Of a DNA stretch of 64,000 nucleotides, positions 2,364 to 30,668 are shown one piece after another. The position numbers and the translations under genes were made by a program. The stretch spans positions 30,024-94,023 of the forward strand of contig JBKHHD010000003.1 in assembly GCA_046539325.1 (NCBI GenBank), written 5' to 3'. The stretch comes from Candidatus Aenigmatarchaeota archaeon. Lineage in GTDB: Archaea > Aenigmatarchaeota > Aenigmatarchaeia > PWEA01. A model generated the notes under the pieces. The model had not been told where the DNA came from, ran no database searches, and was given only the letters and a program-made list of their open reading frames with translations. How positions within the stretch are numbered: position 1 is the stretch's first letter; each line of letters opens with the position of its first letter.

Positions 2364-2493
2364 GCCGGCGTGGCCTAGTGGTTAAGGCGCTGCGCTCATA
2401 AACAATAATTTATGAGCTTTGATCCGCTGACGCGGAGATGAAAAATTTTGCGGTGCAACGCAGAGAGCGAGGGTTCGACCCCCTCCGCCGGCA
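2364..2493 (+). tRNA. tRNA-Met(CAU), probably elongator, with a 57-nt intron at 37/38 (2401-2457)
   Basis: Acceptor GCCGGCG/CGCCGGC, anticodon stem CTGCG/CGCAG with loop CTCATA^A, T arm GAGGG-TTCGACC-CCCTC. Confidence 0.92.
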
Positions 2494-30524: not shown

Positions 30525-30668
30525 TGGTCCCCCGACCGTGATTTGAACACGGGGCCTGTCGGTATCGGCAGAGGCGCTAATCCAAGGCACCAAATCAAAA
30601 TACCGAAGAGTTATCATCTCCGGTGCCCGTCTACAGCCGACCGCTCTGCCAGCCTGAGCTATCGGGGG
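30525..30668 (-). tRNA. tRNA-Tyr(GUA) with a 67-nt intron at 37/38 (30564-30630); CCA encoded
   Basis: C1-G72 acceptor CCCCCGA/TCGGGGG, anticodon stem GTCGG/CCGAC with loop CTGTAG^A, T arm CCGTG-TTCAAAT-CACGG. Confidence 0.93.

Follow-up and report, generated by a model that had tools for sequence, protein, structure and literature searches.

The intron of an elongator tRNA-Met gene in the window, a stretch of 64,000 nucleotides from a Candidatus Aenigmatarchaeota archaeon, probably acts as a C'/D'-type guide that is built on a single K-turn, directs the formation of Cm34 on its own precursor and is then spliced out. The core of this reading, in which the gene's own C34 lies at the D'+5 position of an intron-borne single-guide module, had been put forward in a preliminary description of this DNA, and it is supported by an unchanged guide-to-box spacing in all 65 of 65 relatives, by covariation within the K-turn, by genes for L7Ae, Nop5 and fibrillarin, and by five sister introns in the same genome.

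The archaeal assembly comprises 715 kb on 10 contigs and is 91% complete. The gene spans positions 2364–2493 of the window on the plus strand and matches the Rfam tRNA family (RF00005) with 57.6 bits and a 59-nt insert 3' of CUCAU. It was recognized by aragorn -i as tRNA-Met(cat) with one anticodon-loop intron of 57 nt, i(38,57), located at 37/38 and covering 2401–2457, the exact junction being ambiguous by one base due to A-runs at both intron ends. Run without its intron option, ARAGORN missed the gene. Two CAT tRNAs were found in the genome, namely this one, with G1:C72, and an initiator-like one with A1:U72 and a GGG/CCC anticodon stem. An identity as tRNA-Ile2(CAU) was rejected, since the genome encodes a tRNA-Ile(UAU) with two introns (contig C6:4489–4646, minus strand) and the TiaS family gave no match in the 91%-complete assembly; all four archaeal control genomes match. 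AUA would thus be read without a CAU-type tRNA-Ile2, and we infer, at this completeness, that the gene at 2364–2493 is the elongator tRNA-Met. As a separate observation, the tRNA-Ile(UAU) and the missing TiaS match suggest AUA decoding without agmatidine, similar to a report for some other DPANN archaea. Just upstream of tRNA-Met, the tRNA-Ile(GAU) at 2196–2319 of the window is interrupted in its D-loop region, where relatives have an uninterrupted 75-nt gene.

The target strand GCTCATAAA (2394–2402, plus strand) comprises G31, the anticodon loop C32–A37 and the first two intron bases, with C34 located at 2397. The antisense guide TTTATGAGC (2409–2417, plus strand) is its exact reverse complement, in agreement with the preliminary description, resulting in a helix of 9 bp with a 6-nt loop between the strands. 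The partner of C2397 is G2414, located five bases upstream of T2419, where the box TTGA starts, while T2418 is an unpaired spacer; the D+5 relationship proposed earlier for C34 therefore holds on this sequence. Both the guide helix and the hairpin TCCGC-TGAC-GCGGA at 2423–2436 are part of the minimum-free-energy fold (z = −4.0 and −3.4). The duplex of 9 bp is below the usual 10–12 bp of box C/D guides. A perfect 9-bp hairpin by itself is not rare, as six with loops of 3–10 nt occur in the window versus 0–4 in 20 shuffles, and the case consequently rests on context and conservation. What lies above chance is that the guide hairpin is kept at a fixed distance from a covarying K-turn.

The element adjoining the guide at 2419–2443 of the plus strand is, by its sequence, a canonical K-turn. 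The D'-like box TTGA (2419–2422) forms the non-bulged strand, the C-stem hairpin (2423–2436) lies flush with it, and the three bases G2437-A2438-U2439 (2437–2439) form the bulge GAU. They are followed at 2440–2443 by the C'-side GA, with the tandem sheared pairs G2440·A2422 and A2441·G2421 and the two Watson–Crick pairs A2442-U2420 and A2443-U2419. The TTGA box, the hairpin and a C-like box GAGATGA (2435–2441) had all been located correctly in the preliminary description. For the latter the coordinates stand, whereas the register, which used the first GA, was rejected because it leaves no bulge and misfits relatives with AAUGA, UGUGA or GGUGA. Shifting this register by 3 nt, such that the sheared pairs use G2440 and A2441, renders the element an ordinary K-turn with the bulge G2437-A2438-U2439 and thereby removes the earlier caveat that the 3-nt bulge was missing. 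A second caveat, that both boxes deviate from consensus, proved justified, with TTGA standing against CUGA and AUGAAAA (the bulged strand reads AUGA-AAA) against RUGAUGA. The K-turn corresponds to the internal C'/D' motif of an archaeal box C/D sRNA, for which D'-then-C' is the normal order, so that the layout requires neither a circular intron nor a permutation. The earlier notion of a minimal single-guide sRNA in D-then-C order is thus retained as a single intron-borne guide module, in line with the constant spacing and the covarying K-turn, but without the circle as an explanation of the order.

To describe conservation among tRNA-Met relatives, we used both similarity and pattern searches. 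BLAST with the gene yielded matches in 22 of 61 genomes (its own and 60 relatives), and the intron-bearing tRNA-Met genes of two genera and then of six further families all follow the arrangement ATGAG(C)-N-NNGA, hairpin or short loop, NNN-GA. A survey of 201 genomes of the same class used the pattern CGCYNCGCTCATA, which represents tRNA positions 25–37 only and constrains nothing 3' of them; it reaches only tRNA-Met genes with a matching anticodon stem and returned 102 sites in 90 of the 201 genomes. Sorting these sites led to the removal of 33 with neither D-arm nor 3' exon, of three dropped by eye for lack of a D-arm or T-arm, having passed the 3'-exon test by chance (L059, L071, L086), and of one cut by a contig end (L009). 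With these 36 non-tRNA sites and one truncated site removed, 65 complete, non-identical tRNA-Met genes remained, including the gene at 2364–2493. As the surveyed genomes are related, the counts obtained from them are not independent and none of them represents a probability.

All 65 genes contain an intron, ranging from 25 to 207 nt. In every one of them GAG lies opposite C34-U33-C32, and 2 nt separate it from a 4-nt box, the letters of which were left unconstrained; counted upstream from that box, the G facing C34 is the fifth base (65/65). The box itself reads NNGA in 63 of the 65 introns (TTGA 40, ATGA 8, CTGA 5, AAGA 3, TGGA 2 and five singletons), the variants outside this form being CTTA and TCAA. 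Aligning the introns of relatives for box conservation, the check proposed with the preliminary description, thus turned out in its favor for both box and spacing. Contiguous guide pairing extends over 4–10 bp, with 9 bp in the gene at 2364–2493; the Met guide cannot covary, as its target in the anticodon loop is invariant. Between the 5' splice site and the guide lie anywhere from 2 to 137 nt, whereas the spacing to the box is constant; the guide thus keeps its place with respect to the K-turn rather than to the splice sites. One family (L008, L010–L012, L015, L108–L116) contains, besides the guide intron, a second tRNA-Met intron in the T-loop, and the C stem of its K-turn is only 2 bp long with a GAAA cap. 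Among the matches listed for a scan of the collection with GCTCATAN{1,31}TGAGCNNTGA, at least four of at least 121 loci are archaeal tRNA-Met introns, from MAGs titled Aenigmatarchaeota, Woesearchaeota (two) and Nanoarchaeota; the other listed loci are chance matches, mostly bacterial, and the scan says little on distribution.

A first automatic K-turn caller labelled 62 of the 65 introns as K-turn or K-loop. This caller was permissive, making some call in 74% of shuffled tails and reaching an equal or better score in 22%, and it was therefore rejected as single-sequence support and replaced by a test that does not select on the pairs it scores. A hairpin of at least 4 bp directly 3' of the box is present in 36 of the 65 introns. 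In 24 of these 36, GA follows exactly 3 nt past the hairpin end, while other offsets account for 1–4 cases each, except for offset 0, whose 10 cases arise because the same sequences contain GAUGA and its first GA is counted there. The 24 introns with GA at the 3-nt offset comprise 18 distinct stem sequences, and positions 4b-4n are paired in 21 of them, a value reached by 17 of 5000 permutations. Box and partner change together, with TTGA found with AA, TA or CA, ATGA with TT, AAGA with TT, AGGA with CU, TCGA with GA, and CTGA with UG or AG. This covariation supports the K-turn structure predicted for the intron. The 12 hairpin cases that fail are either K-loop types, for which the hairpin finder picked a spurious stem, or have long inserted stems (L096, L098, L099) or a one-base offset (L088, L089). 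Relatives with a K-loop of 6–12 nt in place of the hairpin include consensus CUGA / UGAUGA forms (L045, L054).

The same genome contains five more tRNA introns with a one-K-turn module, those of Trp, Leu-CAA, Leu-UAA, Thr and Tyr, aimed at position 34 or 39 of their own tRNA. The introns of tRNA-Trp (C1:116084–116240, minus strand), tRNA-Leu(CAA) (C2 near 24736, minus strand) and tRNA-Leu(UAA) (C2:90820–90962, plus strand) share the order guide-NN-TTGA-hairpin-GAU-GA, with the fifth base opposite C34, C34 and U34, respectively; the GA of the K-turn and the splicing-helix strand UGAG overlap in Leu(CAA). In the tRNA-Thr(UGU) intron (C4:60220–60372, minus strand; L238), the guide GCUGAUUU faces A38–C43 with its fifth base opposite U39. 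This module is kept in the genus, box and partner covarying from TTGA:AA to TCGA:GA, and a relative from another family has C39 in place of the target U39, together with G in place of A in the guide of its Thr intron. The tRNA-Tyr(GUA) intron (window 30525–30668, minus strand; K-turn at about 30586–30627) has the C-then-D order, reading GCACCGGA-GAU-GA-UA, a 12-nt guide stretch, and then UUGA-UUUGGUGC. Its guide UCGGUAU pairs with AUA-C39-C40-G41-A42 of its own tRNA, such that the fifth base upstream of UUGA faces C39. Five relatives of the genus keep the Tyr module, with TTGA:TA exchanged for ATGA:TT and changes in the stem, and it was not found in three tRNA-Tyr introns of another family. 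Pyrococcus is described to possess four C/D sRNAs whose targets are position 34 in tRNA-Leu(CAA), Leu(UAA), Met and Trp (PMC7994747). The position-34 targets of the introns in this genome are these same four tRNAs.

Complementarity to the anticodon loop could also be a splice-site helix only, or a chance match with accidental boxes. Pairing between anticodon and intron is common in tRNA introns generally, which counts against a guide, an archaeal intron at 37/38 is normally base-paired with a portion of the anticodon loop, and shuffled windows contain about two perfect 9-bp hairpins each. The canonical splicing helix pairs C32–A35 with intron bases −6 to −3, located 3–6 nt before the 3' splice site. 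At this place many relatives (L019, L024, L079, L080 and others) carry, besides the guide, a separate TGAG that forms 4/4 pairs. Furthermore, the distance of the guide is fixed to the K-turn and to neither splice site, 63 of 65 boxes read NNGA, and the K-turn pairs covary. The comparative data hence already contradict a mere splicing helix or chance, which we regard as highly implausible, and the finding named beforehand as one that would overturn the proposal, complementarity serving the splice-site helix alone, did not emerge.

For the gene at 2364–2493 the splicing conformation is poorly defined, as fold modelling did not find a clean canonical bulge-helix-bulge (BHB) motif, in which two 3-nt bulges with the splice sites flank a 4-bp helix. 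The sole candidate for the strand facing C32–A35 is GGUG (G2452–G2455), with C-G, U·U, C-G and A·G as the resulting pairs, two of the four being Watson–Crick; the bulges UAA and CAA are at the right places, and GGUG is likewise found at the end of the tRNA-Trp intron of this genome. When the cloverleaf was imposed as a constraint, guide helix and hairpin persisted in the most stable fold, at −49.9 kcal/mol compared to −38.5 kcal/mol for the BHB-like splicing conformer, which is about 11 worse in the model. Since the guide fold and the splicing fold are mutually exclusive, refolding must precede splicing. In the favoured fold, the 5' splice site is hidden within the guide helix, which, together with the weak BHB-like fold, implies that some factor must control the refolding.

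Such a buried splice site and a much weaker BHB-like fold would also be expected if the K-turn and the anticodon pairing were a folding or processing device, with fibrillarin not acting on C34. L7Ae bound to the intron might then order maturation, shield the anticodon loop or gate splicing. L7Ae is described to bind K-turns in several non-guide RNAs, e.g. RNase P RNA, and the Met intron has only one K-turn. This explanation leaves open why position 34 or 39 always lies opposite the fifth base, in six introns of the genome as well as in 65/65 Met relatives, and why the position-34 tRNAs are the same four as the C/D targets described for Pyrococcus, and we consider it unlikely.

If the Met intron is instead a guide for Cm34, the 9-nt antisense (2409–2417) would pair in the unspliced precursor with G31–A37 and the first two intron bases, and the adjoining K-turn (2419–2443) would bind L7Ae, leading to the recruitment of Nop5 and fibrillarin. 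C34, opposite the fifth nucleotide upstream of the box, would be 2'-O-methylated, and the RNA would then refold, enabling the splicing endonuclease to remove the intron. L7Ae binding, the methylation itself, its action in cis and its timing before splicing are what we infer in this scheme. The genome encodes the corresponding proteins, with fibrillarin, Nop5 and L7Ae matching at 273, 202 and 107 bits, respectively.

It is conceivable that the active guide is the excised intron, linear or circular, working in trans on another precursor or on mature tRNA-Met, given that the tRNA-Trp intron guide is reported to act in trans (PMC7994747, PMC4090602) and that archaea contain tRNA introns as well as C/D RNAs in circular form (PMC7994747). 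Two of the nine guide pairs, however, use intron bases 2401–2402, which are absent from the mature tRNA, the D'-then-C' order requires no circle, and folding strongly favours the intramolecular helix. Taken together, we judge action in trans to be quite unlikely and retain methylation in cis on the precursor as the preferred reading. Points against any guide function are that the intron has a single K-turn and single-site RNPs are reported to be non-specific (Hardin and Batey 2006), in addition to the short duplex, the non-consensus boxes and the poor BHB fold.

The Met intron and exons showed no second box pair forming a terminal C/D motif, and the intron contains neither a guide to position 39 nor a second K-turn. 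A possible second arm, UGCGGUGC (2449–2456, plus strand), is complementary to tRNA positions ~24–31 (2387–2394) in the minimum-free-energy fold. An arm of 7 nt is present in 17 of 62 relatives, and for the gene at 2364–2493 10% of shuffles perform equally well; this weak candidate is not significant alone and was rejected as a supported element. An Rfam scan of 2100–2600 with E ≤ 10 returned only sR12, with 13.4 bits versus a cut-off of 38. The antisense lies directly upstream of a D'-like box with the target opposite its fifth nucleotide, and the missing terminal C/D motif of a full archaeal box C/D sRNA makes the intron a C/D-guide-like design rather than a canonical member.

Known systems share individual traits with this design. 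In archaea, the Cm34 of elongator tRNA-Met is reported to be a product of box C/D RNPs (PMC6601510). The closest counterpart of the arrangement is the euryarchaeal pre-tRNA-Trp guide (Pyrococcus sR50; Haloferax volcanii), which likewise resides in the anticodon-loop intron of its own target and addresses the wobble C34 on the precursor (PMC7994747, PMC4090602). The published Trp intron guides Cm34 and Um39 (PMC7994747), representing a box C/D RNA that selects two sites, in contrast to the single K-turn and single guide of the Met intron, which is complementary at 34 and lacks the second guide for 39. The tRNA-Trp intron of the present genome has the same one-K-turn module as its Met intron. 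A 2014 review referred to the tRNA-Trp intron guide as a 'unique example' (PMC4090602).

The preliminary description had suspected that a Met-intron guide might already be reported from DPANN archaea, and a C/D-like RNA from a tRNA-Met intron has indeed been published. In Nanoarchaeum equitans, the 66-nt intron of elongator tRNA-Met gives rise to a stable RNA proposed to be a C/D box sRNA (Randau 2012, Genome Biol 13:R63, PMC3491384), matching our case in the tRNA, the intron position and its origin from a DPANN archaeon. Compared by description only, that RNA combines a variant of box C with a consensus box D and a GC hairpin, and the portions of the text at hand name no target, C34 self-targeting or one-K-turn layout (PMC3491384). 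For a self-targeting one-K-turn guide in a tRNA-Met intron, we found no description in the literature outside subscription journals and supplements.

Haloarchaeal sR-tMet (Joardar et al. 2011; RF02163) also directs Cm34 formation in elongator tRNA-Met, acting on the precursor that still contains the intron (via PMC6601510). It is a free-standing, trans-acting RNA of ~75 nt, whereas the Met-intron guide lies within its own target. No homologue of sR-tMet reached the threshold anywhere in the genome, the best RF02163 match, located elsewhere, scoring 17.3 bits versus a cut-off of 50. The C'/D' motif of sR-tMet is reportedly also unusual.

With regard to the single K-turn, the Met intron resembles engineered single-site ('hemi' or half-mer) RNPs, which combine one K-turn with one guide and of which a half-mer crystal structure is cited in PMC6239191. 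A single-site box C/D RNP was found to be active but without site specificity (Hardin and Batey 2006). These half-mer RNPs are synthetic, act in trans and have lost specificity, whereas the Met-intron design is natural, conserved and tethered to its substrate.

Extending the argument to all six introns, we tentatively propose, as a possibility falling somewhat short of probable, that in this DPANN class the guides for the anticodon arm have been relocated to the introns of the very tRNAs they target, forming a one-K-turn family directed at position 34 in Met, Trp, Leu-CAA and Leu-UAA and at position 39 in Thr and Tyr. The tether in cis would permit site-specific methylation with a single K-turn, where in-vitro work points to two being needed, and the mutually exclusive guide and splicing folds would constitute a methylate-then-splice checkpoint, explaining the retention of introns in small genomes. 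If true, a natural box C/D-type enzyme would work with one K-turn when its guide is tethered to the substrate, which is relevant to the way in which the two-motif architecture determines site specificity. It would also provide a reason for the persistence of tRNA introns in genome-reduced archaea, the intron being a modification guide, and the tRNA-Trp case would no longer be 'unique' but one of at least six tRNAs within a single genome of 0.7 Mb. The intron modules are missed by tRNA finders and Rfam thresholds, and a model of the module would improve tRNA gene annotation and modification prediction in DPANN archaea.

Two crude regex searches for canonical two-K-turn C/D sRNAs gave no match in the genome (shuffles 0–2), a weak result that may reflect degenerate boxes. 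A generic K-turn regex gave 48 matches over the genome versus 30–38 in shuffles and is thus dominated by noise. On the plus strand of contig C2 at 57246, downstream of the 16S end and within the rRNA operon spacer or the 23S flank, lies a K-turn-like element reading UUGA-UCCC GAGA GGGA-GAU-GA-UA.
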